A stretch of DNA of 64,000 nt from Candidatus Kapaibacterium sp. (GTDB lineage: Bacteria; Bacteroidota; Ignavibacteria; Kapaibacteriales; UBA2268). Positions 8,531 to 26,628 of this stretch are shown here, in pieces. Positions within the stretch are counted from its first letter, which is position 1; every line of letters begins with the position of its first letter. Made by a program: the position numbers and the translations under genes. Location: the NCBI GenBank assembly GCA_963665665.1, contig OY762428.1, positions 928,001 to 992,000 of the forward strand, in the 5' to 3' direction. The notes under the pieces are model-generated. The model was not told where the DNA came from, ran no database searches, and was given only the letters and a program-made list of their open reading frames with translations.

Positions 8531-9832
8531 ATGATGAAAAGCCTAAAATTGTTGATTATCCCGGCATTATTGCTAACTTTCGTGGTATTCAAATCAAATG
8601 CCCAGGTGGAAGACGGGCAGACTATAGATAAAATTATCGCCATAGTCGGCGAGGAAATAGTAATGAAATCCGACCTTGACGGATCGCTTATGTTCCTTGC
8701 CTCGCAAAATCCCGGCATAGATATTAACGATCCTGAAGTCAGGAAAATGGTTCTGGACAACCTTATTAACGAAAAAATACTCGTTACTAAAGCTATTGAA
8801 GATTCTATTGAAGTTGCAGACGAGGAAGTCAATCAGCAGCTCGACTACCTGATACAGCTGAAAGTACAGCAGCTTGGATCTGAAAAACGCGTTGAAGATG
8901 TTTACGGAATTTCCATTAGCAGGCTGCGTTATGAATACCGCGAGGAAGTGAAAAAGCAAATACTAAGCGAGAAATTCCGACAGCAAATGTTGGGTGAGAT
9001 AACAACTACTCCTAAGGAAGTTGAAGAATTCTACCAGGAATATATTGACTCGCTCCCCATGATACCCGCTCAGGTGGAACTTTATCATATTGTTAAGAAT
9101 ATTGAAGCAGATAATACAGCTAAAAAAGATGTATTTAAACTTGCCCGTGCAGTCAGGGACAGCATAATAAACGGAGGGGATTTCGCGGAATTTGCAAAAC
9201 GCTACAGCAGCGACCCCGGAACTAAGGATGAAGGCGGCGACCTTGGTTGGGTAAGCAAAGGCAAATTCTATCCCGAATTTGAAAAAGCCGCATTCTCGCT
9301 TAATAAAGATGAAATTTCCATTCCTGTTGAAACACCTTTTGGCTTCCACATCATTCAGACTCTTGAAAAAAGAGAGGATGCAATGCACTCCAGGCATATA
9401 CTTTTCCGTGTAGGGCAATCCACAGAAGACAGGGACAAAGCAAAGAACGCTCTGCTCGACCTGAAAAAGCAGGTGGAAGAAGGCGCATCGTTCGAAAATT
9501 TAGCTAAAGAACATTCCGATGATAAGGACACAAAGGGGTTTGGCGGTTTCATCGGCAGGGTCAGGATGAACGAAATGCCGGCAAACTTCCGTGAAGCTAT
9601 CCAGGGGCTTGATGATGGCGGTGTTAGCGAACCTTTGCCCTACAATGGCGACCCAACCAAGCAGGCATACCATATTATCTGGAAGAAACAAGAGATACCT
9701 GCCCATAAGCCTTCGCTTAAAGAAGATTATAAGATAATTGAAAAAATGGCGCAGAACAGTAAGAAAACCAATGAATACCAGAAAAAGATGGATGAGCTGA
9801 GGAATGAAATTTATTGGGAAATAAAAGAGTAG
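8531..9832 (+). CDS. surA: SurA-type peptidyl-prolyl isomerase chaperone
   Basis: Signal peptide, IDKIIAIVGEEIVMKSD N-domain, two parvulin domains (FAEFAKRYSSDPG...GGDLGW, ETPFGFHIIQ, FENLAKEHSDD). Confidence 0.88.
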   Translation: MMKSLKLLIIPALLLTFVVFKSNAQVEDGQTIDKIIAIVGEEIVMKSDLDGSLMFLASQNPGIDINDPEVRKMVLDNLINEKILVTKAIEDSIEVADEEVNQQLDYLIQLKVQQLGSEKRVEDVYGISISRLRYEYREEVKKQILSEKFRQQMLGEITTTPKEVEEFYQEYIDSLPMIPAQVELYHIVKNIEADNTAKKDVFKLARAVRDSIINGGDFAEFAKRYSSDPGTKDEGGDLGWVSKGKFYPEFEKAAFSLNKDEISIPVETPFGFHIIQTLEKREDAMHSRHILFRVGQSTEDRDKAKNALLDLKKQVEEGASFENLAKEHSDDKDTKGFGGFIGRVRMNEMPANFREAIQGLDDGGVSEPLPYNGDPTKQAYHIIWKKQEIPAHKPSLKEDYKIIEKMAQNSKKTNEYQKKMDELRNEIYWEIKE

Positions 9833-9893: not shown

Positions 9894-10075
9894 GCTGTTA
9901 TTATTTTGGTAAAACTACAGGATAGCAAACCTGCCATGCGCCGCTGATTCTCGGGTCATTCATGCGGAATTCAGTAGTCAGGCTGTTCCCTGCGCCCTTT
10001 ATCTTATCATCCTTTTCCATGCCGTTAAAGCCCCACCTGTTGCTGCCGCCAAAGAACCTGCCTTCCTCCATAAAC

Positions 10076-10180
10076 CCATTGTCTGAACTATGATTTTTGG
10101 GATGGGCAGGATTAATAGGATAAGAAATCTGAACATCCTATAATCCTTCTTTATCCTATACATCCCAGTGCAGAAAATGG
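10076..10180. mobile_element. 105-bp imperfect-palindrome element replacing ~70 bp of the RHS arm (copy 1)
   Basis: Ends CCATTGTCTGAACTATGAT and ATCCCAGTGCAGAAAATGG are inverted repeats, with internal GGAT/ATCC repeats. Second copy at 13950-14054. Confidence 0.75.
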
Positions 10181-10368
10181 AAACAGTGGCGCGCACATTA
10201 CCGAGGTGGTCAGTTAAGTGATATTGCTTTTCGCCCACAATGCGGTAAAACTGGCTGCCCCGGTCATACTCCAGTGGCTCGTATGCCAGTTCTTCCTTCG
10301 GCTGGCGAATGGCAAACTTACCATGCGCCGCCGAGCCGTATATATCCCACTCGGAGAGGATGGGGTTT

Positions 10369-10381
10369 GTTTTCAAAGAAC
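10369..10381 (-). promoter_or_regulatory. Cassette-start motif GTTCTTTGAAAAC (boxA-like), C8
   Basis: Exact 13-mer, 27 nt after the upstream immunity stop codon. Confidence 0.65.
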
Positions 10382-10408
10382 TGGAGAAATATCTGCATTT
10401 AATAAAAA

Positions 10409-10915
10409 TTAATAAAAATAATTATTTTTTTGATTTCCAATAAAATCAATTTTTGCCTTAACTTTTTTCCAATTTTTGGAATAAATATAAAATATTGTAT
10501 CATTTTTAGGTTTCATTATCAAATCATATTTGAAGTAACGGGTATATTCTCTGGGTATTCTGATTCTTATTGAATTTGAATCAATTACCTTAATAAAAAA
10601 GTAATTAAAATTCAATAAACTATGATTTATACAAGAATCAAGTGAAATCATTATATTTGAATATGAACTATGATAACTATTTTTTATACTATATATTTGA
10701 CCGATTATTATATAATTTAAAAAGGCTCTATTGCATGAATCAGATACAATACTTTTTTCATTTGATGTTAGGTATCTAATATTGTAAGGTTCACTATACA
10801 TTTCTTCTTCATTAATAATTGATTGTCTAATAACAAAAATGGCAAATACCACCCCAGATATTGCAATGATAAATGTTAAAATTGTAATTAAACATCCATT
10901 TTTTTTCTTTACCAC
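10409..10915 (-). CDS. Putative immunity protein for C7 (N-terminal membrane anchor)
   Basis: Start overlaps the toxin stop by 1 nt. Very AT-rich, with a hydrophobic N-terminal helix. Confidence 0.75.
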   Translation of the reverse strand: MVKKKNGCLITILTFIIAISGVVFAIFVIRQSIINEEEMYSEPYNIRYLTSNEKSIVSDSCNRAFLNYIIIGQIYSIKNSYHSSYSNIMISLDSCINHSLLNFNYFFIKVIDSNSIRIRIPREYTRYFKYDLIMKPKNDTIFYIYSKNWKKVKAKIDFIGNQKNNYFY

Positions 10916-12219
10916 TAATTACCTCTTAAATAATCTTTAATATCATTAGTAAAATTATTAATATGTGTCCAGGGAAACACCCCTCCAGTCATCATTTCAA
11001 TATGCTTTCCTAATATATTTATTTGACCACTTGTTGAATTCATTAATTCTTTTGTTTTTACAGGATAACGATCTAATAGAAATGATACTGTTTTTGAATA
11101 AACATAATTCAATCGTGAACTTTTCCCTATTCCTACACCAAAACCGAAGCTAAAACCATACCAGTAATCTGCTTTCTCTGGAGGATCATTCCACCATTCA
11201 TATCCTTCTCTTGCAAAATAAGTTGCACCAACAGAAGCACCATATTTCTGAAATATTGCAGCAGATATTGATTGATTGGTGTTCGTTCCAGCAAATGATT
11301 CTGGAGTAATATCACTATCATCGCCTTGCCACCAAGCAGCAAAAGCAGCAGCCTGAATTGAAATATCCGCTCCAGCAATATCTTTAATTTTTAATGGCAT
11401 GTAATTTCCTCCTCCCAATTCTAAGTTCAAGTAGCGATATGGTACAAATGCATAATATCCTTTTGTAAAAATTACAAATGAAGCATCACCTATTGAAGCT
11501 TTTATTCCTGCAGCACTTACAAATGCATTTGCTTCTATTGAAATATCAATTCCAATAGCATCAGGAACATCATATTGATTTAGATTTTTGTATGAACTAT
11601 TTTCAATATCAAATGGTACTTCAAAATTCTTTTTAGCAAATGAATCATGTTCAAACATTATTGAATTACCATTATTGCCAGTTATCGAAATAGTATCCAG
11701 ACCGCTTGGATCTGCAAACCAAATAGGATTACCACTAAAAGAAGAGTATGGGCTTTCCCATTCCTTAACTACCATATCCTGTCGCCACCACTTTACAGTT
11801 CTTGTGTCTAACATCCGAAACTCAGTGTTCAGGCTATTCCCTGCCCCTTTTATCTCATCATCTTTCTCCATGCCGTTAAAGCCCCAGCGGTTGCTGCCGC
11901 CAAAGAAGAACCTGCCTTCCTCCATAAAGCCGAAGGGATAGAAGCTGGCAGCCGTAATGGTATTGGTAAGGAAGCCGCCGCCGCTCGGCTCTTTTATATC
12001 CGAAACAGTGGCGCGCACATTACCAAGGTGGTCAGTCAGGTGGTACTGCTTTTCGCCTACTATGCGGTAAAACTGGCTGCCCCGGTCATACTCCAGTGGA
12101 TCGTACACCAGTTCTTCTTTCGGCTGGCGAATAGCAAACTTACCATGCGCCGCCGAGCCGTATATATCCCACTCGGAGAGGATGGTGTTGGTTTTCAAAG
12201 AACGTATATATAAATTCAC
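10915..12219 (-). CDS. Orphan RHS cassette C7: intact core arm plus unassigned C-terminal toxin
   Basis: Full core ...YHLTDHLGNVRATVSD...NPIWFADPSGL (DPxG motif), then a variable tip. Start uncertain (in-frame TTG within the motif at 12198). Confidence 0.85.
   Translation of the reverse strand: MNLYIRSLKTNTILSEWDIYGSAAHGKFAIRQPKEELVYDPLEYDRGSQFYRIVGEKQYHLTDHLGNVRATVSDIKEPSGGGFLTNTITAASFYPFGFMEEGRFFFGGSNRWGFNGMEKDDEIKGAGNSLNTEFRMLDTRTVKWWRQDMVVKEWESPYSSFSGNPIWFADPSGLDTISITGNNGNSIMFEHDSFAKKNFEVPFDIENSSYKNLNQYDVPDAIGIDISIEANAFVSAAGIKASIGDASFVIFTKGYYAFVPYRYLNLELGGGNYMPLKIKDIAGADISIQAAAFAAWWQGDDSDITPESFAGTNTNQSISAAIFQKYGASVGATYFAREGYEWWNDPPEKADYWYGFSFGFGVGIGKSSRLNYVYSKTVSFLLDRYPVKTKELMNSTSGQINILGKHIEMMTGGVFPWTHINNFTNDIKDYLRGN
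12191..12203 (-). promoter_or_regulatory. Cassette-start motif GTTCTTTGAAAAC (boxA-like), C7
   Basis: Exact 13-mer, 12 nt after the upstream immunity stop codon. Confidence 0.65.
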
Positions 12220-12986
12220 TGTTTAAATGTTAGGGGAACAACTTTTTTTTCTTCCCTTGAATACAAAGCATCAAAAATATTTTTCATATCAACAGTATCT
12301 CTTTGGCCATTCTTCTCAATTATTTTTTCAAATAAGTAACTACCTCCTATAGTTTCCCAATCTCTATCTCTGAAATAAAATATACCATATTTATTGTTAA
12401 AATAATATTCGGGTACAAAAGGTATTGATCCTTGATTTTTTATACCGTACTCATTTTTGAATATTTTAAATTGAAGATTTGATGAAATTGAAATTTTCTG
12501 GAATTTTTCTAATTGATCATTAATCATTAGAGTATCAATCACCGCAAAAGTACTAAATTGGATATTACCATCTTTATCTAAAAGTCTAATATGATTATAT
12601 AAAGAATCAGTATTTGGATAAAAGTACAAAAGTGAATCATTTGTATTAAATATCTTAAATATATTCCTATCACTTAATTTACCGTGTAATTCATATTGTA
12701 GCTTGTCTTTTTTTATATAAACTGTATCCCGATAATAAATAAGTCCATCAGGCGTATATTTATAACAATTGTTATAATAATCGTAGTGCTTTATTGTATC
12801 AAAATAAAAGTCATTTGAAATTGAATCATATTTCTTGATCAAAGGAATTTCTGACGAACCATAAAAAAAAACTTTTTTTCTTAACAACCAACTTCGATAT
12901 ACTATTTCATCATATTCGTTATCTTCAGAACAGGAAGAAAATAATAAAATGTTAACAAAAAGCAAGATTATCGATTTTTTCACCAT
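12216..12986 (-). CDS. Putative immunity lipoprotein for C6
   Basis: Lipobox-like LLFSS-C. Overlaps the toxin stop. AT-rich. Confidence 0.78.
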   Translation of the reverse strand: MVKKSIILLFVNILLFSSCSEDNEYDEIVYRSWLLRKKVFFYGSSEIPLIKKYDSISNDFYFDTIKHYDYYNNCYKYTPDGLIYYRDTVYIKKDKLQYELHGKLSDRNIFKIFNTNDSLLYFYPNTDSLYNHIRLLDKDGNIQFSTFAVIDTLMINDQLEKFQKISISSNLQFKIFKNEYGIKNQGSIPFVPEYYFNNKYGIFYFRDRDWETIGGSYLFEKIIEKNGQRDTVDMKNIFDALYSREEKKVVPLTFKQ

Positions 12987-13949
12987 TTCTTTTTATAACC
13001 TCCTGATTCAAATTTTTTCTTTTTCTCATTTAAATGATCTCTAACAGTATCATCTGGATCTGGTTTATCTTTTATTCTATTTAAATTAATAAATTTTTTG
13101 ATTTCAGCTTTTAACTTTGCAGCTTTTAATATACTAATTATATGTTTGTCATATGTCGTTCCTTTTCTCCAATTCTCAGAATGTAACTTAATATATGCAA
13201 AGTAGTTAAAACACTCAATTTTATTAAAATCATTAAGTTTCTTATTATTTAACATTTCCCAGCCCAATTCCCTAAATTCAAGCCAAAAATATCTCCATTG
13301 ATCACCATGCAAATTTACTTCATGACTCCAAGTATTCACAATTTTTAATAATTGATAATCAGGATAATTATCATATGCAGACCATGCCCACAAATCCTTC
13401 TCAACGCGAAAATTGATTAAAAAGCGCCCATCTTTTTTTAGTTCACCAATGGCTTCACCAGCTCCATCATATTTGGTGTCTTGAATACTAAAATTAGCAT
13501 CCATACCATGATTATGATTCGTACCGTTTTCTTCAGCACTAATTGAAAAATCAATTATTTTTCCTTCCATTTTAAATCCTTCATGAGCATAAGATAATAT
13601 TGTCTTTCTGCCTTGTGGAGTTGATGCCCACAACTCAAATGCTTTCACTTGGATTTTATTCTTCAATTCACCTGTTTTTTCATCATAGTTATAAATTCCA
13701 TCAACATTAGCGCTATCACCCCTCGGATCGCTATAGAAAACAGGATTGTTGTCATATCCGGCATAACGGCTGATTGACGGATTTGGTTTGGGATCCAGGC
13801 TCCACCACCGGCCGCCAATTCTCGGATCATTCAGGCGGAATTCAGTAGTCAGGCTGTTCCCTGCGCCTTTCATCTCATCATCCTTTTCCATGCCGTTAAA
13901 GCCCCACCTGTTGCTGCCGCCAAAGAAGAAGCGGCCTTCCTCCATAAAA

Positions 13950-14054
13950 CCATTGTCTGAACTATGATTTTTGGGATGGGCAGGATGATTTGGATAATAA
14001 ATTGGAACATCCTATAATCCTTCTTTATCCTATACATCCCAGTGCAGAAAATGG
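13950..14054. mobile_element. 105-bp imperfect-palindrome element replacing part of the RHS arm (copy 2)
   Basis: Same length, ends and site as 10076-10180. Differences are confined to the central part. Confidence 0.75.
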
Positions 14055-14244
14055 AAACTGTGGCGCGCACATTACCGAGGTGGTCGGTCAGGTGGTATTG
14101 TTTTTCGCCTACTATACGGTAAAAAGCGCTGCCTCGTGGTATTTCACTCGGCGAGTACACAAGTTCTTCCTTCGGCTGGCGAATAGCAAACTTACCATGC
14201 GCCGCCGAGCCGTATATATCCCACTCGGAGAGGATTTTGTGTTG

Positions 14245-14256
14245 GTTTTCAAAAAC
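14245..14256 (-). promoter_or_regulatory. Cassette-start motif variant GTTTTTGAAAAC, C6
   Basis: One-base deletion of the 13-mer at the same position relative to the arm. Confidence 0.5.
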
Positions 14257-14347
14257 TTTAATACAAAAACACTATGGTAGTAATTAATGACTACAAATAA
14301 TATTATGGCAGAATATCAACGAATATTATCATCTATGATTTCGTTTT

Positions 14348-14710
14348 TTATGAAACTATCTCGCCAAGAATAAAAAGTAATATTATAATCATTAAAAATG
14401 CCATTAGTCTCAAATATAACATACTTTTACTCTGATATTTAAAATCAAATTCTTCTGCAATTTTTTTATGCTTTTCTTTCCATACATACATAAAAAAGTT
14501 TTTAAAAAACAGCAATATATAAGTAACAGTAATTACTATACTTTCAATATCCCATACAATATCAAATATACAGAAAATTAAATAAAACAAATTTATTAAA
14601 AAAACTAATTCAAAAAATGATATTAAAATAATTGTATAAAATTCGATATAAGTTTCTTCGCGACGAAATTTTCTATTGAGATAATAGATTATATAAAATA
14701 TTTCTTTCAT
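14348..14710 (-). CDS. Putative membrane immunity protein for C5 (paralogue of 17809-18171)
   Basis: 120 aa with about three hydrophobic helices. Near-identical to the C3 immunity protein. Confidence 0.8.
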   Translation of the reverse strand: MKEIFYIIYYLNRKFRREETYIEFYTIILISFFELVFLINLFYLIFCIFDIVWDIESIVITVTYILLFFKNFFMYVWKEKHKKIAEEFDFKYQSKSMLYLRLMAFLMIIILLFILGEIVS

Positions 14711-15766
14711 AGTGTATGTCCTTATTTAAAAATTGCGGTTTGTTTTTGATATTGGCCGAACCATATTTCCTAATTTTGATCCATCATACTGACTAAAATC
14801 ATAATCCTGATCAAAAATTCGTTCCCATTTTCGAATTGCATCTCCCATTCGTCGAGGAAGATGAACAACTTTACGAATTAATGCCCAATTACCATTTGGA
14901 TAATGTTCATCAGCTCTATACCAATAACGTGCATCGCGAGTATTGCTTAAAGCAAATTTTCCAATAGATAGTGTCAGTCCAGCTGGTGGTGAAATATATG
15001 CAACACCGCTAAACAAACCATCTAATGCAAGATCAGTTCCTGAAATATTATTTTCCCGATATTCATCTAAACTAAGTGCTGTTGAAAGTATAACCAATGA
15101 TGTTCCAATTGTTTTACCAGCTTTGGCAATATTGAATGATGATGATGAACCTAACATTGCAGATCCAATACTTCCAATTAATAAGCCAGCTTGTGCTGCT
15201 TTATTAAATTGATCTTGATCAGTAATTTCAATTAAAATATTTTCTCCATGACCAACAATAACTAAACCCCACTCATCCATCACAGCAGTCCAATACTTAT
15301 CTTCTGGGAATATATCAGCAACTTTTGGTAGACCGTATTTTCCAACAGCCTCTTCAACTCCTGATTGATCAAATCCTGTTATTTTATCAGCCTCAACCGC
15401 AACATCTTCTAATTTTGCATCATTCACCCAATTTCCATCTTGAAAAGTCCAATTAAATCCTTTATAATTACTTCTTGTATCTCCTTCATGTGGTGTTACA
15501 TCTTCTCCTGCGTTATATTTTGAAGTCAGATCTTCGAGTCCAGACGGATCAATAAACAAGATTGGATTATTCCCATATCCACTATAAGGACTCGTCCAGG
15601 GCTTCACAATAGGATCTCTTGACCACCACCTGCCGCCAATTCTCGGGTCATTCATGCGAAATTCCGTGGTCAGGCTGTTCCCTGCCCCTTTTATCTTATC
15701 ATCCTTCTCCATGCCATTAAAGCCCCACCTGTTACCACTACCAAAGAACCTGCCTTCCTCCATGAA

Positions 15767-15820
15767 CCTCCCGATTGTTTTATGGAATTGGAATGCGGTC
15801 GGGATTTCGCTTCGCTCAAC
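15767..15820. mobile_element. 54-bp REP-like in-frame insertion in the C5 arm
   Basis: Absent from the paralogous C3 arm (YPFG-FMEE versus YPF-VERSEIPTAFQFHKTIGR-FMEE). Contains a TCCCGATTG/CGGTCGGGA stem and TTCGCTTCGCTCAAC. Confidence 0.75.
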
Positions 15821-15841
15821 AAAGGGATAGAAGCTGGCGGC

Positions 15842-15943
15842 GGCTTCGCCGCAATTAACAATTGACAATGAACAATTGAAAATGAAGAGAAAAGAACAGC
15901 CGACCCAATTGTTAATTCTCAATTTTCAATTTTTAATTGGATA
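15842..15943. mobile_element. 102-bp heptamer-periodic inverted-repeat element replacing 168 bp of the RHS arm (copy 1)
   Basis: CGGCTTCGCCG mini-hairpin, then CAATTAACAATTGACAATGAACAATTGAAAAT ... AATTCTCAATTTTCAATTTTTAATTG. Second copy at 19292-19393. Confidence 0.75.
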
Positions 15944-16010
15944 CGGCTGGCGAATAGCAAACTTGCCATGCGCCGCCGAGCCATATATATCCCATTCGGA
16001 AAGGATGTGT

Positions 16011-16023
16011 GTTTTCAAAGAAC
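16011..16023 (-). promoter_or_regulatory. Cassette-start motif GTTCTTTGAAAAC (boxA-like), C5
   Basis: Exact 13-mer, 15 nt after the upstream immunity stop codon. Confidence 0.65.
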
Positions 16024-16038
16024 GGAATTATTTTGATA

Positions 16039-16464
16039 TTAATTTTCAATATAGGTTAATTCAAGATTGTTAATTTTTAACGAATAGTCTAGATTAATCT
16101 TTTGATATAAATCAACACATAAGGATAACTGGTCATTTACTTTAAAAATATACTTAAAAATTTCATCATGAATGATATAAACTTCAGAATAAAAACCATA
16201 TTTATCAAATAAATCTTGAAAAATAATCTCAAAAGATCCACCGATACTTAATGATTTTATTTTATTATTTTCAGTATGTAAAAAAATATTATTAAAAATT
16301 TTATTTTTAGGTTTAATAAAATATGTACCAATTCCATTAATACTATCAATATCACCTAATTGCCTGATTGTTTTCTCTATGTTTTTTGTCTCAACAAGAA
16401 ACAAAAAATAATCAATAAATTTTTGTAATTCTATAATATCAAGTTTAAATAATGTATTTATCAT
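16039..16464 (-). CDS. Putative cytoplasmic immunity protein for C4
   Basis: Starts 2 nt after the toxin stop. AT-rich, no signal peptide. Confidence 0.75.
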   Translation of the reverse strand: MINTLFKLDIIELQKFIDYFLFLVETKNIEKTIRQLGDIDSINGIGTYFIKPKNKIFNNIFLHTENNKIKSLSIGGSFEIIFQDLFDKYGFYSEVYIIHDEIFKYIFKVNDQLSLCVDLYQKINLDYSLKINNLELTYIEN

Positions 16465-16466
16465 AT

Positions 16467-17711
16467 TTAATCCACAATTTCGTATTTGACATTAGGTGAA
16501 AATAATTGAGTTTCACCACCCTTATAAATTTCTCCACTTCCATCTAAAGCTTTAAAATCATTTGCTGTACTTTGCAAGAATTCTGTGTTCTCTAATAGTT
16601 TAATTTTCACTTTTTTTCTATTTTTTAAAGAAATTCCAAGCTTGTTTTTATCTGCTCCCAATTTTGTGAAATAATTTCCAATTTTAACTTCTCCAGTATT
16701 TTTATCTACATAGGCCCATTGCTCAAGTATTGTCCCTTTTTCATAAGGTTTAGTAAATACTGGCTTATCAAAATCTATTCCCATTAAATGACTTGCTCTA
16801 TGATTATCATCCGTAAACCCATTAATTCTATAAAAATTATCAGCCAATGAATATCTCTTGAGGTTTGTTGTTGATTTGATTATTGACTTAAATACTTTCA
16901 TACTATTGTAAATGCAATAAGCAGAAGTTGCAAGATCTGCGGCTCCTCCCCAGAATCTTAAGTGTCCCTCAAAATCAGCATCCACAACATCATAGTGATT
17001 AGTTTCATATATGCCATTGTTTATTGACCAACCGTATGATTTCCCATCGCCTCCAGATGCTCCAGATACACCAATATCACCGAACAATTCATCAGCATTC
17101 GTTAAAAAGTAAACAATTCCATCAACAGTAGCTTCAAAAGTTGCCTTAAGATATGCTACTTCGGCTCTCTTGATATCATCACTTCTGTTTATCGGAAGGA
17201 ATTCCAATCCCTCCAATTCTACACCATCAATGACTCGATTTTCAGAAAACGCGTAGGATGAGTTATGTGGATATTTTGCCGCAATTGGGTCTATGGCGAA
17301 AAATCTTCCGGAACGTGGATCATACATCCTGTATTTATAGTTTATGATGTTTGCAAGGCCACGAATTTCGTCGTCCCGTTCCTGCCCCTGCATGCCCCAG
17401 CGGTTCTTGCCACCGAAGAAGAAGCGCCCTTCCTCCATGAAGCCGAAGGGATAGAAGCTGGCGGCCGTAATGGTATTGGTAAGGAAGCCGCCGCCGCTTG
17501 GCTCTTTTATATCCGAAACGGTGGCGCGCACATTACCGAGGTGGTCAGTCAGGTGGTATTGTTTTTCGCCTACTATCCGGTAAAATGCACTGCCCCTGTC
17601 ATACTCCAGTGGATCGTAAACAAGTTCTTCTTTCGGCTGGCGAATAGCAAACTTACCCTGCGCCGCAGAGCCGTAAATATCCCACTCGGAAAGGATGAGT
17701 GAGGTTTTCAA
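16467..17711 (-). CDS. Orphan RHS cassette C4: intact arm plus Ntox46-like C-terminal toxin
   Basis: Core ...YKYRMYDPRSGRFFAIDP...SENRVIDGVELEGL. Tip HLMGIDFDKPV...GNYFT...LGI...QSTA...GGETQLF resembles the Ntox46 pattern (recognised by eye, no HMM run). Confidence 0.82.
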   Translation of the reverse strand: MKTSLILSEWDIYGSAAQGKFAIRQPKEELVYDPLEYDRGSAFYRIVGEKQYHLTDHLGNVRATVSDIKEPSGGGFLTNTITAASFYPFGFMEEGRFFFGGKNRWGMQGQERDDEIRGLANIINYKYRMYDPRSGRFFAIDPIAAKYPHNSSYAFSENRVIDGVELEGLEFLPINRSDDIKRAEVAYLKATFEATVDGIVYFLTNADELFGDIGVSGASGGDGKSYGWSINNGIYETNHYDVVDADFEGHLRFWGGAADLATSAYCIYNSMKVFKSIIKSTTNLKRYSLADNFYRINGFTDDNHRASHLMGIDFDKPVFTKPYEKGTILEQWAYVDKNTGEVKIGNYFTKLGADKNKLGISLKNRKKVKIKLLENTEFLQSTANDFKALDGSGEIYKGGETQLFSPNVKYEIVD

Positions 17712-17716
17712 AGAAC
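17704..17716 (-). promoter_or_regulatory. Cassette-start motif GTTCTTTGAAAAC (boxA-like), C4
   Basis: Exact 13-mer, 92 nt after the upstream immunity stop codon. Confidence 0.65.
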
Positions 17717-17808
17717 TTTAATTCAAAAACACAATGGTAGAAATTATTGACAAAAAATAATATTATGGCAAAATATCAACGAATATTATTATCTATGATT
17801 TCGTTATG

Positions 17809-18171
17809 TTATGAAACTATCTCGCCAAGAATAAAAAGTAATATTATAATTATTAAAAATGCCATTAGTCTCAAATATAACATACTCTTACTCTGATATT
17901 TAAAATCAAATTCTTCAGCAATTATTTTATACTTTTCTTTTCTAACATACAGAAAAAAATTTTTAAGATACAACATTAACCAAATTATTGCAACCACAAT
18001 ATTTTCAATATCCCATACAATATCAAATATACAGAAAATTAAATAAAACAAATTTACCAAAAAAAATATTTCGAATAGAGATAGTAAAATAATCGTGTAA
18101 AATTCAACATACGTTTCATCTCTTCGAAATTTTCTATTAAGATAATATATTATATAGAATATTTCTTTCAT
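17809..18171 (-). CDS. Putative membrane immunity protein for C3
   Basis: 120 aa hydrophobic protein, paralogue of 14348-14710. Confidence 0.8.
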   Translation of the reverse strand: MKEIFYIIYYLNRKFRRDETYVEFYTIILLSLFEIFFLVNLFYLIFCIFDIVWDIENIVVAIIWLMLYLKNFFLYVRKEKYKIIAEEFDFKYQSKSMLYLRLMAFLIIIILLFILGEIVS

Positions 18172-19291
18172 AATTCTTTCTCCAATTTAATTCAATACAG
18201 TATAAGTAATATTTTAAAATATTGAAAAATTACCAGTTTCGCTTTACTCTATGAGTACGAACCATATTTCCAAGTTCAGATCCTTCATACTGACTTAAAT
18301 CATATTCTTGGTCAAATATCCTTTCCCATTTCCTTATTGCGTTTCCCATTCTTGTTGGAAGAAAAGCATATTTGCGTATCAATGCCCAGTTACCATTTGG
18401 ATAGTGTATATCTGCCCGATACCAATAACGTGAATATATTGAATGACTAAGAGCAAATTTCCCAATTGCTAAGGTTATACCTGCAACTGGACAAAAATAT
18501 GCTACACCTGTGATTCCCAAATCAATTGCAAAATCAGTTTTTGATATATTATTGTTTCTTAGTTCATTTAAACTAATTGCTGTTGACAATATTGCTAATG
18601 AATTTCCCAGAAATTTACTAGCTGTTAAAATATTAGCTTTACTAGAGCTACTTAGTACATTAGACAGAACACCTCCAAGTACTAAACCACCCCCCAAAGC
18701 TGTTTTATATTTATCCTCATCAGTAATTGAAAGTAATATATTATCACCATGACCAACAACAACTAATCCCCACTCATCCATCACAGCAGTCCAATACTTA
18801 TCCTTAGGGAATATATCAGCAACTTTAGATAGACCGTATTTTCCAACAGCTTCTTCAACCCCTGATTGATCAAATCCTGGTTTTTTATCAGTTTCAACCA
18901 CAACATTTTCTGATTTTACATCATTTACCCAATTTCCATCTTGAAAGGTCCAATTATACCCCTTATGATTTTGTCTTGTATCACCTTCATGTGGTGTTAC
19001 ATCTTCTCCTGCATTATATTTCGAAGTCAGATCTTCGAGTCCGGACGGATCAATAAACAAGATTGGATTATTACCATATCCACTATAAGGACTCGTCCAG
19101 GGTTTCACAATTGGATCTCTTGACCACCACCTGCCGCCGATTCTCGGGTCATTCATGCGGAATTCGGTTGTCAGGCTGTTCCCTGCCCCTTTTATCTCGT
19201 CATCCTTTTCCATGCCGTTGAAGCCCCACCTGTTACCACTACCAAAGAACCTGCCTTCCTCCATGAAACCGAAGGGATAGAAGCTGGCGGC

Positions 19292-19393
19292 GGCTTCGCC
19301 GCAATTAACAATTGACAATGAACAATTGAAAATGAAGAGAAAAGAACAGCCGACCCAATTGTTAATTCTCAATTTTCAATTTTTAATTGGCTA
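19292..19393. mobile_element. 102-bp heptamer-periodic inverted-repeat element (copy 2)
   Basis: Identical to 15842-15943 except one base, with the same junctions. Confidence 0.75.
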
Positions 19394-19463
19394 CGGCTGG
19401 CGAATAGCAAACTTCCCATGCGCCGCCGAGCCGTATATATCCCATTCGGAAAGGATGGTGTTG

Positions 19464-19475
19464 GTTTCAAAGAAC
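19464..19475 (-). promoter_or_regulatory. Cassette-start motif variant GTTCTTTGAAAC, C3
   Basis: One A shorter than the 13-mer, 21 nt after the upstream immunity stop codon. Confidence 0.6.
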
Positions 19476-19496
19476 GAAAGAAATATATATTTTAAA

Positions 19497-20177
19497 TCAT
19501 TTATTATTTAAAATTTGATCCAATACATCTTTAGGAAATTTGAAGTCGATATCTTCATTTGAATGAAAGAAACTAGTATCCTTTTTTACCATTTGAATTA
19601 AATTCAATATCTCAGATTCTTTATATGAAGCTCCTTCGATTTTTTTTATTTCATACATGAATCTCATTTTTGTTCCGACATAACAAATGAATCCGATATT
19701 ATCAACATAATAGGCTTCACATGAATGCATAGAATCTGATTTATCAAATAAGAATTTCGATACTTCAATTTCATCGTTAGAATTAATATTGAACAACTTT
19801 GTTTCTAAAAAGATTGATGTTTCTGGTATTACAGGCTTTAGCGAATAAACTATTTTATTCTTCCATTTTATGTACCGAAAATTAAATTCTGTAAAAGTTA
19901 AGGTATCTTTTCTAAAAAGTGATAATGATGTTATTTTATTTGTCGAATCAAACATATTATCATCAATCTTCAATTGATAGTAATGCTTGTATTCAGTCCA
20001 ATTATGGAATGTACATCTATTATAAAACACCCCCGAATTATTTTTATTAACTTCAATAATGAAAGACAAATATCCAGAATATGAATCCTTATATTCGATC
20101 TTAAAAGTTTTAGTATTGTCCTTATCATTACAACATGAAAATAATATTATCATCAATAAAATAAAATAATTTTTCAT
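19497..20177 (-). CDS. Putative immunity lipoprotein for C2
   Basis: MKNYFILLMIILFS-CC lipoprotein-like signal, immediately downstream of the toxin tip. Confidence 0.78.
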   Translation of the reverse strand: MKNYFILLMIILFSCCNDKDNTKTFKIEYKDSYSGYLSFIIEVNKNNSGVFYNRCTFHNWTEYKHYYQLKIDDNMFDSTNKITSLSLFRKDTLTFTEFNFRYIKWKNKIVYSLKPVIPETSIFLETKLFNINSNDEIEVSKFLFDKSDSMHSCEAYYVDNIGFICYVGTKMRFMYEIKKIEGASYKESEILNLIQMVKKDTSFFHSNEDIDFKFPKDVLDQILNNK

Positions 20178-21286
20178 AACTTCCTTTAATATTAATTATT
20201 TATTTTACTTAAAACCTTATTATTACTTTTTTTTAAATCATTTATATTCTTTACTGATAGATATTGAGTCCAGCAATGATTTAATACACCTAAATTCCAA
20301 ATATCTTCCGAAGTTAGACCAAGATTATAATTATTTGAAAAATTTCGTAACATGGGAAAAGCTTCTTCCTTAAGTCTTTGGATATGGAAAAATAACTCGA
20401 TATTTGTGCTCTTATAAAGTCCAAACAGCTGTGAATATAACCCGAGGAGAGCATCTTGTTGATTTGCTCTTTCCTGTTTATGATACCAGTCAAACCCATA
20501 TTTAATTATTGCTTCTGTAACAAAAAGTTGATGTACATAATTTTCGTGAACAATTGTCCCTAACCTATCCAATAATAATAGATTATAAGTATAATCATTT
20601 GGTGATTCTCTGAAAGCTTTATGTAATGGTTCAACAGTATGAAGTGATTTATTAAATAATACTTCCACTTGATACCGTCCTCCTACTATTGGTACGGTTT
20701 TAGTTCCTTCATAATCAAAAAGGTTTAATTGTGATGCTTCATCACCCATATATTTAGTAGTATAAACGGCATCAATTTTTGCCTTATGGAAATCCCCATC
20801 TTTATCAAATTTAACCTCTTTTCCACCAACTTTTAATATTTGATCTTTTTTTGCAAATTGAGCTAAATATGCTTTGCCTTCAGGTGAAACCATCCATTCT
20901 CCAAAAATTTTATCTGTTGATTTTTCTGGATCATCAAATCCATTTAGTATAATTTCCCTTCCATCAGGATCGGAAAACATTATCGGGTTGTCGCCGAAAG
21001 CTAAATATGAGGAAAATCCGGGATATTTCCCAATTAAAGGGTCAATATTTTGCCTCATGGCCTTGCGCGGGTCGTAGCCATAATCCCCAAAACTAAGGCG
21101 GTTGCCAATTCCACGCACTTCATCGTCCTTCTCGTGCCCACCAAAGCCCCAGCGGTTGCTGCTGCCAAAGAACCTGCCTTCCTCCATAAAGCCGAAGGGA
21201 TAGAAGCTGGCGGCCGTTATGGTGTTGGTGGTGAAGCCGCCGCCACTCGGCTCCTTTATATCCGAAACAGTGGCGCGCACATTGCC

Positions 21287-21306
21287 CCCGACAAGTCGGG
21301 GCAGGC
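21287..21306. mobile_element. 20-bp mini-hairpin insertion (CCTGCCCCGACTTGTCGGGG on the minus strand)
   Basis: Clean insertion between the DHL and GNV codons relative to the other arms. A related 21-mer is at 29584-29604. Confidence 0.7.
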
Positions 21307-21323
21307 AAGGTGGTCTGACGAGA

Positions 21324-21460
21324 GAGTTCCCCTCTTGAGGGGTGCCCGAAGGGCGGGGTGGATAAAAAGGCTGTAGGTTGAAGGCAGTATTTCCATATTT
21401 CGCAATACAAAAGAACCCCACCCCGTCTCGCTGCGCTCGCCACCCCTCCAGAGGGGAATT
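21324..21460. mobile_element. ~135-bp GC-rich REP-doublet element replacing ~100 bp of the RHS arm
   Basis: Inverted arms TTCCCCTCTTGAGGGGTGCCCGAAGGGCGGGGTGG and CCACCCCGTC...CACCCCTCCAGAGGGGAA. Confidence 0.78.
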
Positions 21461-21510
21461 TTTGCCATGCGCCGCCGAGCCGTATATATCCCACTTGGAG
21501 AGAATTTTGT

Positions 21511-21523
21511 GTTTTCAAAGAAC
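21511..21523 (-). promoter_or_regulatory. Cassette-start motif GTTCTTTGAAAAC (boxA-like), C2
   Basis: Exact 13-mer, 19 nt after the upstream immunity stop codon. Confidence 0.65.
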
Positions 21524-21542
21524 GGAATTAAGAAAGTTAATT

Positions 21543-22247
21543 CTAATTATCAATATATGTTCTGTCTTCAAATTCCCACTTTGCTTTAAGAATTTCTGAT
21601 AACAGATATATTTCTAAAAAGTGATAAGTCTTATATTTTGGATTATTTCTGTCATACATCTCATCCATATCTGTATATATGAAAAATTCATCATTTAATT
21701 TAATCCAGATATTTGTTTCATAATGGACTTTCGAAAAAAGTGGGATTTTGTTCGATGTTTTGAAACTTTTTAATATGTATATAATTTTTCCAACAAATTC
21801 TACCGAACTGATGCTGGCAATAAACTTTGGTAAGTCATGTTTACTAAAGCTATATATCTCAATATTATAAGAATTACCATCCAGAGAGTCCGGATTTGAA
21901 TAAATTCCATTAATTGGATTTTCAGTTGTATAACAATCTCTTTTAAATACAAACAAGTACTGCCTAGATTTGGGCCGGTTTCTCATGTCAACCATAGAAT
22001 TCCATTGACGTTGAATTAGTATAAAATCAAAACTACTTGAATCAGAATGAACAATCTTACTCTTTCCATTGATTTTAGGAATAATATTTTTTATTCTTTC
22101 AATAATATAATCAATATCTGTTTCATCAGCAATAGAAGAGCCTCTATCTAATAACTTATTGTTTTTATTTATATTAAAAGGATTGCACCCAAAAAAAAGG
22201 AGTAAAACAATTAAAAAAATATATGTGTTAATATTAACATTTTTCAT
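21543..22247 (-). CDS. Putative immunity lipoprotein for C1
   Basis: Lipobox LFFG-C. ATGA overlap with the toxin stop. Confidence 0.8.
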   Translation of the reverse strand: MKNVNINTYIFLIVLLLFFGCNPFNINKNNKLLDRGSSIADETDIDYIIERIKNIIPKINGKSKIVHSDSSSFDFILIQRQWNSMVDMRNRPKSRQYLFVFKRDCYTTENPINGIYSNPDSLDGNSYNIEIYSFSKHDLPKFIASISSVEFVGKIIYILKSFKTSNKIPLFSKVHYETNIWIKLNDEFFIYTDMDEMYDRNNPKYKTYHFLEIYLLSEILKAKWEFEDRTYIDN

Positions 22248-23326
22248 TTTATTAATCCTTGATCTCTCATACTATCAATAATGTCTTCTTCATCTTCATT
22301 ATGGAACTCTTTTGGATCTCCGCCAATGGGAACTTTTACATCCAAAGGATCAAGTCCAAAAAATACTCTAATGGGATTAAGGAAATTTTTTCTCCATCCT
22401 GATGGAACCTTATATATACTTCTAAATCTAATTTCCCAAAGAGTTGTTTCCATGCAATTATCTTTCATATAGAAACCTCTAGTTTGGAATACTTTCCAAT
22501 TGGGATGGGTAAGATATAGATACGAATGACCTAGTTCATGTAATGCGATTATTCCATATTCCCAACTATCTACTTCTTTTTGTTCTCTTTCATTCGCCAT
22601 TACTATATCTTTAAAATAAATATTTACACTTGTTAGATTTCCATTAGCGTCAAAAACCGGATCAGCAAGACCATTACCAAACAGATTATCCAATTTACGA
22701 GTTTTTCCTCCTCCCCAGTAATAGGTCAAATTAGCGCTGCCACTCTGGGTGACCATATTAACAAAAATCGGATCTTCAATATTTCTTTTTACCTTTTCAT
22801 AAACCTCTAATTGTTCGGAATTATAATTTGAAATATCAAAGTTATAATTGATTTCCCATCTTCTGGTTTTATTATTATACGAAAACGGATGATCTGGTCC
22901 AAGAGTATTTTTTAAACCTATATTTGTTTTATCCCATGAAGCCTGATCACTCACAACTGTATCACCCCTCGGATCGCTATAGAAAACAGGATTGTTGTCA
23001 TATCCGGCATAACGGCTGATTGACGGATTGGGCTTGGGATCCAAACTCCACCACCTGCCGCCAATTCTCGGGTCATTCATGCGGAATTCGGTTGTCAGGC
23101 TATTCCCAGCACCTTTTATCTCATCATCCTTTTCCATACCGTTAAAACCCCAGCGGTTACTGCCGCCAAAGAAGAAGCGGCCTTCCTCCATGAAGCCGAA
23201 GGGATAGAAGCTGGCTGCGGTAAAGGTTTTTGTGAAGAAGCCGCCGCCACTTGGCTCCTTTATATCCGAAACAGTGGCGCGCACATTGCCCAAATGATCT
23301 GTTAAATGGTATTGTTTTTCGCCCAC
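22244..23326 (-). CDS. Orphan RHS cassette C1: core arm plus HExxH zinc-metallopeptidase-like toxin tip
   Basis: Core to DNNPVFYSDPRGD, tip contains IALHELGHSY. The arm extends in frame to ~23449 but has no start codon there. Confidence 0.82.
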   Translation of the reverse strand: MGEKQYHLTDHLGNVRATVSDIKEPSGGGFFTKTFTAASFYPFGFMEEGRFFFGGSNRWGFNGMEKDDEIKGAGNSLTTEFRMNDPRIGGRWWSLDPKPNPSISRYAGYDNNPVFYSDPRGDTVVSDQASWDKTNIGLKNTLGPDHPFSYNNKTRRWEINYNFDISNYNSEQLEVYEKVKRNIEDPIFVNMVTQSGSANLTYYWGGGKTRKLDNLFGNGLADPVFDANGNLTSVNIYFKDIVMANEREQKEVDSWEYGIIALHELGHSYLYLTHPNWKVFQTRGFYMKDNCMETTLWEIRFRSIYKVPSGWRKNFLNPIRVFFGLDPLDVKVPIGGDPKEFHNEDEEDIIDSMRDQGLIK

Positions 23327-23454
23327 TATGCGGTAAAACTGGCTGCCCCGGTCATACTCCAGTGGCTCGTATACCAGTTCTTCCTTTGGCTGGCGAATAG
23401 CAAACTTACCATGCGCCGCCGAGCCGTATATATCCCACTCGGAAAGGATTTTGT

Positions 23455-23467
23455 GTTTTCAAAGAAC
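23455..23467 (-). promoter_or_regulatory. Cassette-start motif GTTCTTTGAAAAC (boxA-like), C1
   Basis: Exact 13-mer, 45 nt after the lead immunity stop codon. Confidence 0.65.
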
Positions 23468-23512: not shown

Positions 23513-24043
23513 TTATTTCCATCCTTCTGGTAAATTTAAAAAATCGTATTTATTCGAATCAAATACTACCATTATTAAACTTGAAGGACCAAGGATAAAT
23601 ACCTGGTTTTGTTCATAGTCTTCTGGTTGACCAGAAATTATTATTAGTTTTTTACCATTATCAAATTTTATTTTTATGCCTAATAATTCATGATTTTTCA
23701 TATAGGTGTCTGATAGCAAATCAATATTTTCTTCTTGATAACAAAAAGTTTTTTTTCTATACCAAAAATCTAACTCAATTATTTTTTTATTATATATTTT
23801 TTTCCAATTATTATCATTTCTCTTTGTATCATCATCAGAACAGCTATCAATTGTATCAATTTTTATTTCAGAGTAACTACCCTGCCAATAATCACTAAAC
23901 TTATAATAATTCCCATCATCTAATTTTATAATTAACTTATTTTCTATCTCATAGAAATCTAATTCTCCTTTAAAAGGAATTTCTTCATCATAATACACAG
24001 GCTCACAATAAGCCTCAATTATTTTTTTTAATTTAATATCCAT
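23513..24043 (-). CDS. Putative cytoplasmic immunity protein for the lead RHS toxin
   Basis: 11-nt overlap with the toxin end. Acidic, AT-rich, no signal peptide. Confidence 0.78.
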   Translation of the reverse strand: MDIKLKKIIEAYCEPVYYDEEIPFKGELDFYEIENKLIIKLDDGNYYKFSDYWQGSYSEIKIDTIDSCSDDDTKRNDNNWKKIYNKKIIELDFWYRKKTFCYQEENIDLLSDTYMKNHELLGIKIKFDNGKKLIIISGQPEDYEQNQVFILGPSSLIMVVFDSNKYDFLNLPEGWK

Positions 24044-26548: not shown

Positions 26549-26579
26549 CAAAGCTATGCGAGAATTGAAACATATACAA
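26549..26579 (-). promoter_or_regulatory. Candidate housekeeping promoter for the RHS array (TTG-N20-TAGCTTTG)
   Basis: Matches the Bacteroidota -33/-7 consensus. Lies between the valS terminator and the lead RHS ATG. Confidence 0.5.
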
Positions 26580-26592
26580 TTATCAATAATCA

Positions 26593-26628
26593 AAACAGCC
26601 CGGCAATAATATTATCGCCGGGCTGTTT
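26593..26628 (-). terminator. Intrinsic terminator after valS
   Basis: AAACAGCCCGGCAATAAT / ATTATCGCCGGGCTGTTT inverted repeat. Confidence 0.85.

Follow-up and report, generated by a model that had tools for sequence, protein, structure and literature searches.

The region studied here belongs to the genome of Candidatus Kapaibacterium sp. (assembly GCA_963665665.1; 5.46 Mb, 38.6% G+C, a single contig, denoted G000 below), and the window, by which we mean the whole 64,000-nt stretch that was analysed, covers positions 928,001-992,000 of the forward strand of contig OY762428.1. On its minus strand the window holds an array composed of a lead RHS fragment, seven orphan cassettes, each with an RHS arm, a toxin end and a small open reading frame (ORF), and a terminal arm stub (Table 1). 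Toxin and immunity roles in the array were assigned by architecture and position, with "immunity-like" denoting a small ORF 3' of a toxin end. Every cassette, and the stub, is headed by the 13-mer GTTCTTTGAAAAC or a close variant of it, a putative boxA element, and it is this element and its possible role in transcription of the array that concern us.

What the preliminary description of this DNA had called the lead gene is itself a 5'-truncated RHS fragment with weak RHS_repeat and YD_repeat matches, in an order where full-length RHS frames run to ~2300-2900 amino acids (aa), and what it had counted as an eighth cassette, at 10369, turned out to be a terminal arm remnant only, lacking both toxin end and immunity gene. 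Matches to the RHS core end were obtained by tblastn in 8 window cassettes and in the lead fragment. In the seven complete units, the toxin-end frames are open over 321-434 aa and the small ORFs measure 120-256 aa. A Pfam search with the 7 toxin ends and 7 immunity-like ORFs matched no family, and the NCBIfam model TIGR03696 (Rhs_assc_core) gave 36.0, 32.3 and 28.8 bits on the orphan ORFs of cassettes 3, 1 and 7, one of the three lying above the model's cut-off of 32.5 bits. At least four of the arms are broken by inserts, one of which is a genome-wide repeat family and two others of which are confined to RHS arrays. In the arm of cassette 2, at 21400-21470, there is a GC-rich repeat (…CCCCTCTGGAGGGGTGGCGAGCGCAGCGAGACGGGGTGGGG…) resembling repetitive extragenic palindromes or miniature inverted-repeat transposable elements (REP/MITE-like), with 89 blastn matches in the genome. 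The only long RHS frame of the genome (2757 aa, at 1.36 Mb) has a core end that is 49% identical and shows no DNA match to the arm; arm DNA is restricted to two arrays of the genome, and no full-length rhs gene sharing the arm was found. The locus is thus without a deliverable toxin of its own, and it looks like an immunity island assembled from RHS leftovers.

The gap between valS and the lead ORF is AT-rich. It contains a terminator-like hairpin which suggests that the array is not simply reached by read-through from valS, and a single match to TAnnTTTG, the -7 promoter consensus of Bacteroidota. A promoter of the same type (TAATTTTG) stands 5' of the boxA in the host's ribosomal RNA (rrn) operons, and the site in the gap is probably an active promoter. 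A sigma-70 promoter scan was set aside, as this is the wrong promoter type here and its matches exceeded those in shuffled sequences only as expected for AT-rich DNA.

Table 1. Features of the RHS array and its flanks, listed in the direction of the minus strand (window coordinates)
Feature	Position	Strand	Remarks
valS (valyl-tRNA synthetase-like, 905 aa)	26652-29369	-	housekeeping gene directly 5' of array; translation read: tRNA-synthetase class I motifs
Hairpin + T-run, intrinsic-terminator-like, 3' of valS	26591-26627	-	sequence read
TAGCTTTG, TAnnTTTG -7 promoter-type match	26549-26556	-	sole such match between valS and lead ORF
Lead RHS fragment, 806 aa, 5'-truncated, without boxA	24033-26453	-	start ~200 nt past valS
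Immunity-like ORF, 176 aa	23513-24043	-	overlaps stop of lead toxin end; no Pfam family; role from position
Putative boxA copy 1, exact GTTCTTTGAAAAC	23455-23467	-	45 nt past immunity stop; motif TGA is in-frame stop of arm frame
Cassette 1: arm + toxin-end ORF 22244-23326 (360 aa) + immunity-like ORF 21543-22247 (234 aa)	21543-23442	-	
Putative boxA copy 2, exact	21511-21523	-	19 nt past immunity stop; motif TGA is in-frame stop bounding arm frame
Cassette 2: REP/MITE-like repeat inside arm; ORF 20192-21421 (409 aa) + immunity-like ORF 19497-20177 (226 aa)	19497-21498	-	
Putative boxA copy 3, GTTCTTTGAAACC, one A of A-run lost	19463-19475	-	21 nt past immunity stop
Cassette 3: array-specific insert replaces arm middle; ORF 18230-19372 (380 aa) + immunity-like ORF 17809-18171 (120 aa)	17809-19450	-	
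Putative boxA copy 4, exact	17704-17716	-	92 nt past immunity stop; TTG in frame
Cassette 4: ORF 16467-17711 (414 aa) + immunity-like ORF 16039-16464 (141 aa)	16039-17691	-	
Putative boxA copy 5, exact	16011-16023	-	15 nt past immunity stop; TTG in frame
Cassette 5: ORF 14726-15922 (398 aa) + immunity-like ORF 14348-14710 (120 aa)	14348-15998	-	paralogue of cassette 3
Putative boxA copy 6, decayed: GTTTTTGAAAAC, C deleted	14245-14256	-	90 nt past immunity stop
Cassette 6: arm with insert; ORF 12980-13945 (321 aa) + immunity-like ORF 12216-12986 (256 aa)	12216-14232	-	
Putative boxA copy 7, exact	12191-12203	-	12 nt past immunity stop; TTG in frame
Cassette 7: ORF 10915-12219 (434 aa) + immunity-like ORF 10409-10915 (168 aa)	10409-12178	-	
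Putative boxA copy 8, exact	10369-10381	-	27 nt past immunity stop; TTG in frame
Terminal arm remnant with insert, without toxin end or immunity gene	9940-10368	-	array end
SurA-like gene	8531-9832	+	convergent with array; adjoins terminal stub

Six exact copies of the 13-mer and two with a one-base deletion had been described at the cassette starts, all on the minus strand and 12-92 nt after the preceding immunity stop, and all eight were recovered, with gaps in that range. After each copy there is a variable, A/C-rich linker of 6-11 nt, followed by CCTYTCCGARTGGGATATATACGG, the start of the arm (LSEWDIYGS). At the equivalent point the lead ORF has only GTTCTTT (25277-25283), as had been noted, and there it codes for V-L-S (…PDRHVLSEWD…; …PDRHVLSEWDIYGS…), so the motif is not a piece of the coding sequence of a longer RHS ORF. 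When 11 arm-linked junctions were aligned (8 from the window and 3 from a second array at 3.37 Mb), the sequence upstream was unconserved, the motif nearly invariant, the linker interrupted by insertions and deletions, and the arm at least 90% conserved; homology among the 11 cassettes starts precisely at the motif, which is the first conserved element of each, and all 11 copies lie on the coding strand of their cassette. The earlier statement that the motif is more conserved than its neighbours therefore stands for the linker and the upstream flank and fails for the arm, which is conserved about equally.

The TTG of the motif, at a distance of 24-29 nt from the arm's W codon, is in frame with the arm in only four of the eight copies, as counted before, and in two others the TGA of the motif is an in-frame stop (Table 1); because of this the motif is, judged by its reading frames, an element acting at the nucleic-acid level and not as coding sequence. 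Predicted RNA accessibility gave no signal, with an unpaired probability of 0.42-0.66 for the RHS copies (percentile 41-89) and 0.44 for the copies in the rrn leaders.

BoxA is a site in the RNA from which NusB and ribosomal protein S10 (NusE) start assembly of the Nus-factor complex on RNA polymerase, and the comparison with the host's own rrn boxA that the preliminary description had proposed gave an exact match at 13 of 13 positions. The exact 13-mer occurs 13 times in the genome, compared to 0.37-0.87 copies expected under Markov models of orders 0-3, and the backwards motif, used as a control, occurs 0 times. A loose scan of the window (≤2 mismatches) was unimpressive, with 8 matches found, 3.8 expected, and 4 of 100 shuffles reaching 8. 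Each of the two 16S genes has one of the genomic copies 104 nt upstream on its own strand, preceded by a TAnnTTTG-type promoter, and the same rrn leader contains two further GAACTTTGAAAAC copies. One copy is in the leader of a type I CRISPR locus (L002 4520-7118; Cas3, Cas1 and Cas2 by Pfam, ~37 repeats of CTTTAATCGAACCATATAGGAATTGAAAT), where it falls between cas2 and the first repeat, ~145 nt before the latter and co-oriented with it (G000:C1:127106-127118, minus strand). Eight copies are at the starts of RHS orphan cassettes, divided between two arrays, and each points the same way as its cassette; the motif is rare in the genome, and the refuting condition raised earlier, a motif common genome-wide without strand bias, did not apply. 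One is intergenic (G000:C1:3808425-3808437, plus strand), ahead of a long operon; it falls in a 465-nt gap 164 nt before a 563-aa ORF, past which comes an ORF of 1621 aa whose product carries a type IX secretion sorting domain, both ORFs being co-oriented with the motif, and it may be another non-rRNA boxA target; the last is antisense within a likely gene and may be due to chance. Since the 13-mer is identical at 13 of 13 positions to the copies in the rrn leader and the CRISPR leader, it is, by the best criteria that sequence alone can offer, the organism's own boxA. The genome has genes for both Rho and NusB. An Rfam search found no family in the window and none in seven related loci.

The second array (G000:C1:3372800-3376900, minus strand; L001 12800-16900) lies behind a major facilitator superfamily (MFS) transporter gene and has boxA-led RHS arms, the motif being present in two exact copies and in the forms GATCTTTGAAAAC and GTTCTTTGAAAAT. 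Among the cargo of this array are a RhuM-family protein and an ORF6N/Rha-like protein, which are not typical small immunity ORFs. Elsewhere in the genome, a repeat resembling an insertion sequence (IS), with ~20 copies (e.g., 119403, 165320, 919030), contains GGTCTTTGAAAAC, one mismatch away from the motif and apparently inside transposase coding sequence; one-mismatch matches are thus not all boxA.

The motif was also sought in relatives. When 200 genomes of the host's order were scanned for the exact 13-mer, most of those with any match had 1-4 copies, with three outliers, and in a 401-genome sample of the phylum more than three exact copies were present only in the host genome (13) and in G033 (10), a member of another family. 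In relatives the rrn leader carries GTTCTTTGAAAAC in G202 and G184 and one-base variants elsewhere, a form ending in ...AAT in G018 and GTACTTTGAAAAC in G084 and G097, ~100-135 nt upstream of 16S; G008, G059, G033 and G101 have no assembled 16S, and the comparison of orphan-linked with rrn boxA was made in G084. Boxed orphan cassettes, i.e., those headed by the motif, were found in at least five other genera from two families, and the junction to the RHS arm was different each time: the motif joins the core at LSEWDIYGS in the host, KQYELTDHLGNVR in G008, LGNVRVV in G084, GNAYYTLFREYDP in G202, and LGQWLTRDP in G033. One boxed orphan was seen in each of G008, G059 and G084, and in G202 boxA lies 19-21 nt ahead of a truncated arm.

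G033 and its congener G101 have same-strand arrays with 12 units at a spacing of 1.7-2.7 kb. Units of these arrays (L027-L031, L072, L073) read TCC-GTTCTTTGAAAAC-TATGAGGCATTTCGATTAGCCCC, with TATGAGGCATTTCG... after the exact boxA, and hold GC-rich hairpins and assorted small ORFs. Hairpin-rich elements akin to the REP/MITE-like repeat of cassette 2 also come after boxA in G033. An RHS core end is present in only some of the units, at one locus as LGQWLTRDPVFQPWESPYS...NPILFSDPLGD; it matched residues 44-84 of the window RHS core-end query with 59% identity (tblastn), in an ORF without an NCBIfam family. Cassettes led by boxA may therefore not be limited to toxin/immunity cargo. In G104, a third congener, motifs with one mismatch stand 28 nt before truncated core ends, with a 15-nt A/C-rich linker.

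We also used a sample chosen by RHS core and not by the motif, namely 20 loci with at least two core hits in 15 genomes, out of 72 positive genomes; locus L039 entered this sample with the motif there already known. The motif (≤1 mismatch) was found on the same strand within 600 nt upstream of 5 of the 62 core hits, as compared to ~0.19 expected from motif density, and of 3 of 59 when L039 was left out. Searches with arm DNA across 40 relatives gave no match, a metagenome scan with a degenerate arm pattern gave 0, and k-mers shared at the arm boundary of boxA-less arrays showed no interpretable pattern.

Several other placements of the motif were observed in these genomes. In G059 and G084 (L045 7873, L051 1880), the orphan-linked GTTCTTTGAAAAA lies 4 nt 5' of a perfectly paired GC hairpin, which is itself followed by a T-run (AACGGCAAG...CTTGCCGTTTTT), a layout that could be a nut-like boxA-boxB pair or a boxA directly 5' of an intrinsic terminator. 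G018 (L032, L033, L036) and G184 (L034, L035) contain tandem units spaced 170-480 nt apart, each beginning with the exact boxA or GTTCTTTGACAAC, in ORF-poor DNA; no Rfam family and no tRNA was found in these short arrays, and they may be arrays of boxA-led small RNAs. In G175, G164 and G191, exact boxA copies occur in same-strand pairs ~5.4 kb apart, which exceeds the leader-to-spacer distance; such a pair may flank a single operon, with the first copy ahead of 16S and the second past the operon's end, or may belong to operons in tandem. The fourth exact copy of G202 does not adjoin a CRISPR array.

Orphan immunity arrays guard bacteria against neighbours' toxins, and Rho typically acts against foreign, AT-rich DNA. 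A boxA in each cassette would be a simple and testable answer to how a dozen promoter-less, AT-rich and partly broken cassettes stay expressed. We give an even chance to the proposal that the boxA of each cassette would load Nus factors and keep polymerase in a termination-resistant state, such that the immunity genes stay transcribed. Transcription would probably begin at a single promoter in the gap between valS and the lead RHS fragment, then proceed along the minus strand; each cassette would supply its own boxA shortly past the preceding immunity stop and just 5' of an often broken RHS arm, and the emerging boxA RNA would convert, or re-convert, polymerase to the resistant form. Made resistant in this way, polymerase could pass over the arm and toxin remnant, which would be translated poorly or not at all, and get as far as the next immunity gene; the rRNA and CRISPR transcripts of the same cell are apparently handled likewise. 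On the minus strand no terminator-like hairpin was found in the gaps between cassettes, TAnnTTTG was absent from the 60 nt upstream of all 8 copies, and the lead fragment, directly behind the sole promoter-like site, is the one unit without boxA; together these are consistent with one long transcript. We infer binding of NusB/S10, sensitivity of the array to Rho, a single transcript and a benefit to immunity expression. The observation itself is well supported, and the mechanism appears plausible.

Several findings weigh against this proposal. The toxin-end reading frames have stayed open, and in four cases the immunity ORF overlaps the stop of the toxin, so ribosomes may cover much of the RNA anyway; for the same reason the "untranslated" toxin remnant of the preliminary description is an assumption. 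The downstream RNA, with 10-13% C and 12-21% G, is A/U-rich, and not C-rich and G-poor like E. coli rut sites. Motif and arm decay about equally fast, with ~2-3% of positions changed in the motif and ~4% in the first 39 nt of the arm (hand count over the 11 junctions), recent paralogues (16011, 19463 and the second array) have already diverged within it, and the copy at 14245 is without the C. All arm-linked copies of the genome could come from a single capture event. In relatives, the scan of RHS orphan arrays suggested earlier supported the association in that the motif recurs in other genera, and failed to do so in that 57 of the 62 core hits in the 15 genomes have no motif, including whole arrays (0 of 7 in G175; 0 of 9 at L037/L038 in G202), which means that boxA is not required for such arrays. 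Furthermore, no motif with ≤1 mismatch was present in 271 kb around 21 loci with distant arm proteins (35-70% identity), and the orphan motif of G084 departs at two positions from the rrn boxA given above for this genome, so that co-variation between the two is not seen there.

A broader form of the proposal is that horizontally exchanged cassettes carry a host-type boxA as a portable anti-polarity part, which would re-arm polymerase against Rho wherever the cassette has landed and let its useful gene be expressed in spite of junk lying upstream. We regard this only as a tentative possibility. If true, boxA would be a general portable part of hypervariable cassette arrays, beyond rRNA and CRISPR leaders, covering orphan toxin/immunity units as well as the other small cargo of G033, in this order and perhaps more widely.

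Among the alternatives, the one that survives best, although we think it unlikely, is that the motif is a hitch-hiking relic, a boxA captured once beside an RHS arm (e.g., by an illegitimate join), spread passively by arm-to-arm recombination and now functionless. A single arm family behind all 11 arm-linked copies, the equal conservation of motif and arm, the decayed copies at 14245 and 19463 together with GATCTTTGAAAAC in the second array, and the many orphan cassettes in relatives without the motif (57 of 62) are all as such a relic would have them. It accounts poorly for the fact that a sequence matching the host rrn and CRISPR boxA at 13 of 13 positions stands exactly at the homology boundary, which is very unlikely without selection or a specific source, and for a motif-arm linker that varies in length and sequence between two constant flanks. 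Moreover, boxed cassettes occur in at least five other genera and join the RHS core at no fewer than five different points, a pattern that passive spread of one arm cannot yield.

It is also improbable, in our estimate, that the motif serves as a repressor, with a Nus complex at a boxA near or over the start codon blocking translation of the toxin remnant, with or without antitermination. There is precedent in E. coli and Citrobacter, where, according to PMC5725501, a boxA within ~50 nt of the start codon represses suhB and a ParE-like toxin gene, and the four in-frame TTGs in the window, at their short distance from the W codon of the arm, would suit such a role. However, the other four TTGs are out of frame and the motif gives a stop in two copies, and at least four arms are already broken by inserts, leaving little to repress. 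In the same source, moreover, the repression led to Rho termination, which would silence the downstream immunity gene and is hard to square with intact immunity genes.

That the 13-mer, perhaps with a pyrimidine-rich TYCC immediately 5' of it, is a recombination or capture site, i.e., the DNA site of a recombinase for cassette insertion and excision in the manner of attC or the rAID-1 motifs, had been offered as an alternative in the preliminary description, and we consider it quite improbable. The motif is the exact upstream homology boundary, flanked on one side by unrelated immunity genes and on the other by sequence that varies. In G033, G104 and G202 it borders cassettes whose downstream sequences are quite unlike, and in these lineages a short TYCC, absent from rrn and CRISPR sites, is often found 5' of it. 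The intergenic repeats of rAID-1 are also described as reminiscent of integrons in 10.1101/471110. Against this, there is no recombinase gene beside either array, the flanks being valS and the SurA-like gene in the window and genes for the MFS transporter, a prolyl oligopeptidase and a dihydroorotate dehydrogenase (DHODH)-like protein at the second array, and the boxA of the rrn and CRISPR leaders is identical yet marks no cassette boundary. The motif does not fit what we take to be the consensus of integron core sites, which also counts against a recombination site, and in the short contigs of three DNA runs, all of one sample and one study, the only breaks at the arms were artefacts of the repeats, a weak point on the same side. 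Finally, it is hardly credible that the motif is a mere translation start region (TTG plus context) for short orphan toxin proteins, since, even though an ORF finder begins 9999-10376 and 16467-17711 at the TTG (and 10915-12219 via an upstream GTG) and four of eight TTGs are in frame, the other four are not, the identical 13-mer occurs in non-coding rrn and CRISPR leaders, and in other genera the distance from motif to arm ranges from 19 to 534 nt and the frame varies.

Among the top results of a full-text literature search, none tied boxA, NusB or antitermination to Rhs, polymorphic-toxin or orphan-immunity arrays, and the Rhs and orphan-immunity papers among those results contained zero mentions of boxA or NusB. 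If the proposed antitermination is true, it would extend Nus-factor action from rRNA and CRISPR arrays to protein-coding defence libraries, and the rrn boxA of each genome would become a sequence handle with which to locate such arrays and to predict which genes in them are live.

The phage lambda nut site consists of boxA followed by a boxB hairpin. The orphan boxA of G059 and G084, with its GC hairpin 4 nt later, is nut-like in this sense, although the hairpin is followed by a T-run and may equally be a terminator; the window copies, in contrast to lambda nut, are without such a hairpin, and we know of no N-like protein here. Another counterpart is the rrn boxA bound by the Nus complex (NusB-S10, NusG, NusA, SuhB): the array motif is identical to the boxA of the host rrn leader and oriented alike with respect to its unit. 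The B. subtilis rrn boxA, AUGAUCUUUGAAA, which binds NusB according to PMC13753749, has the core CTTTGAAA in common with the array motif. In rrn operons boxA occurs once or twice per rRNA operon, whereas in the array it occurs once per protein-gene cassette, and all rrn copies seen have AGGGAGCA 3' of the motif, where the array copies have the A/C-rich linker instead and no leader-trailer helices.

Stringer and colleagues reportedly described in 2020 that boxA upstream of CRISPR arrays shields these long untranslated arrays from Rho. The host CRISPR leader carries the exact 13-mer, and the shared logic would be that of a long, horizontally fed and poorly translated array needing end-to-end transcription; the CRISPR arrays, however, have one leader boxA per array, while here there is one per unit and the payload is protein-coding immunity genes. 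Repression of suhB and the ParE-like gene (Baniulyte et al., 2017; PMC5725501) likewise involves a boxA outside rRNA, near a possible start codon and beside a toxin gene, although those are single 5' untranslated region sites of gamma-proteobacteria with the consensus GYTCTTTAANA and negative action, unlike the repeated and half out-of-frame copies of the window. The Rhs orphan toxin/immunity arrays, as reported in PMC3150448 and PMC3967940, are likewise tandem repetitions of a conserved core piece, a variable C-terminal end and a small ORF; they differ from the present array in that here there is no full-length rhs with a matching arm and all arms begin at one point behind boxA. In the rAID-1 arrays of gut Bacteroidales (Ross et al., 2019, 10.1101/471110; PMC12247911), AT-rich orphan immunity genes likewise follow one another at length in a single orientation, with conserved motifs in the stretches between them, and serve as an immunity library; these arrays are defined by a 5' XerD-like recombinase, of which none was found beside the arrays studied here. 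CRISPR-leader boxA and rAID-1 arrays are the nearest known systems, and if boxA is indeed a portable part of cassette arrays, the conserved intergenic sequences of rAID-1 might be a further case of it.

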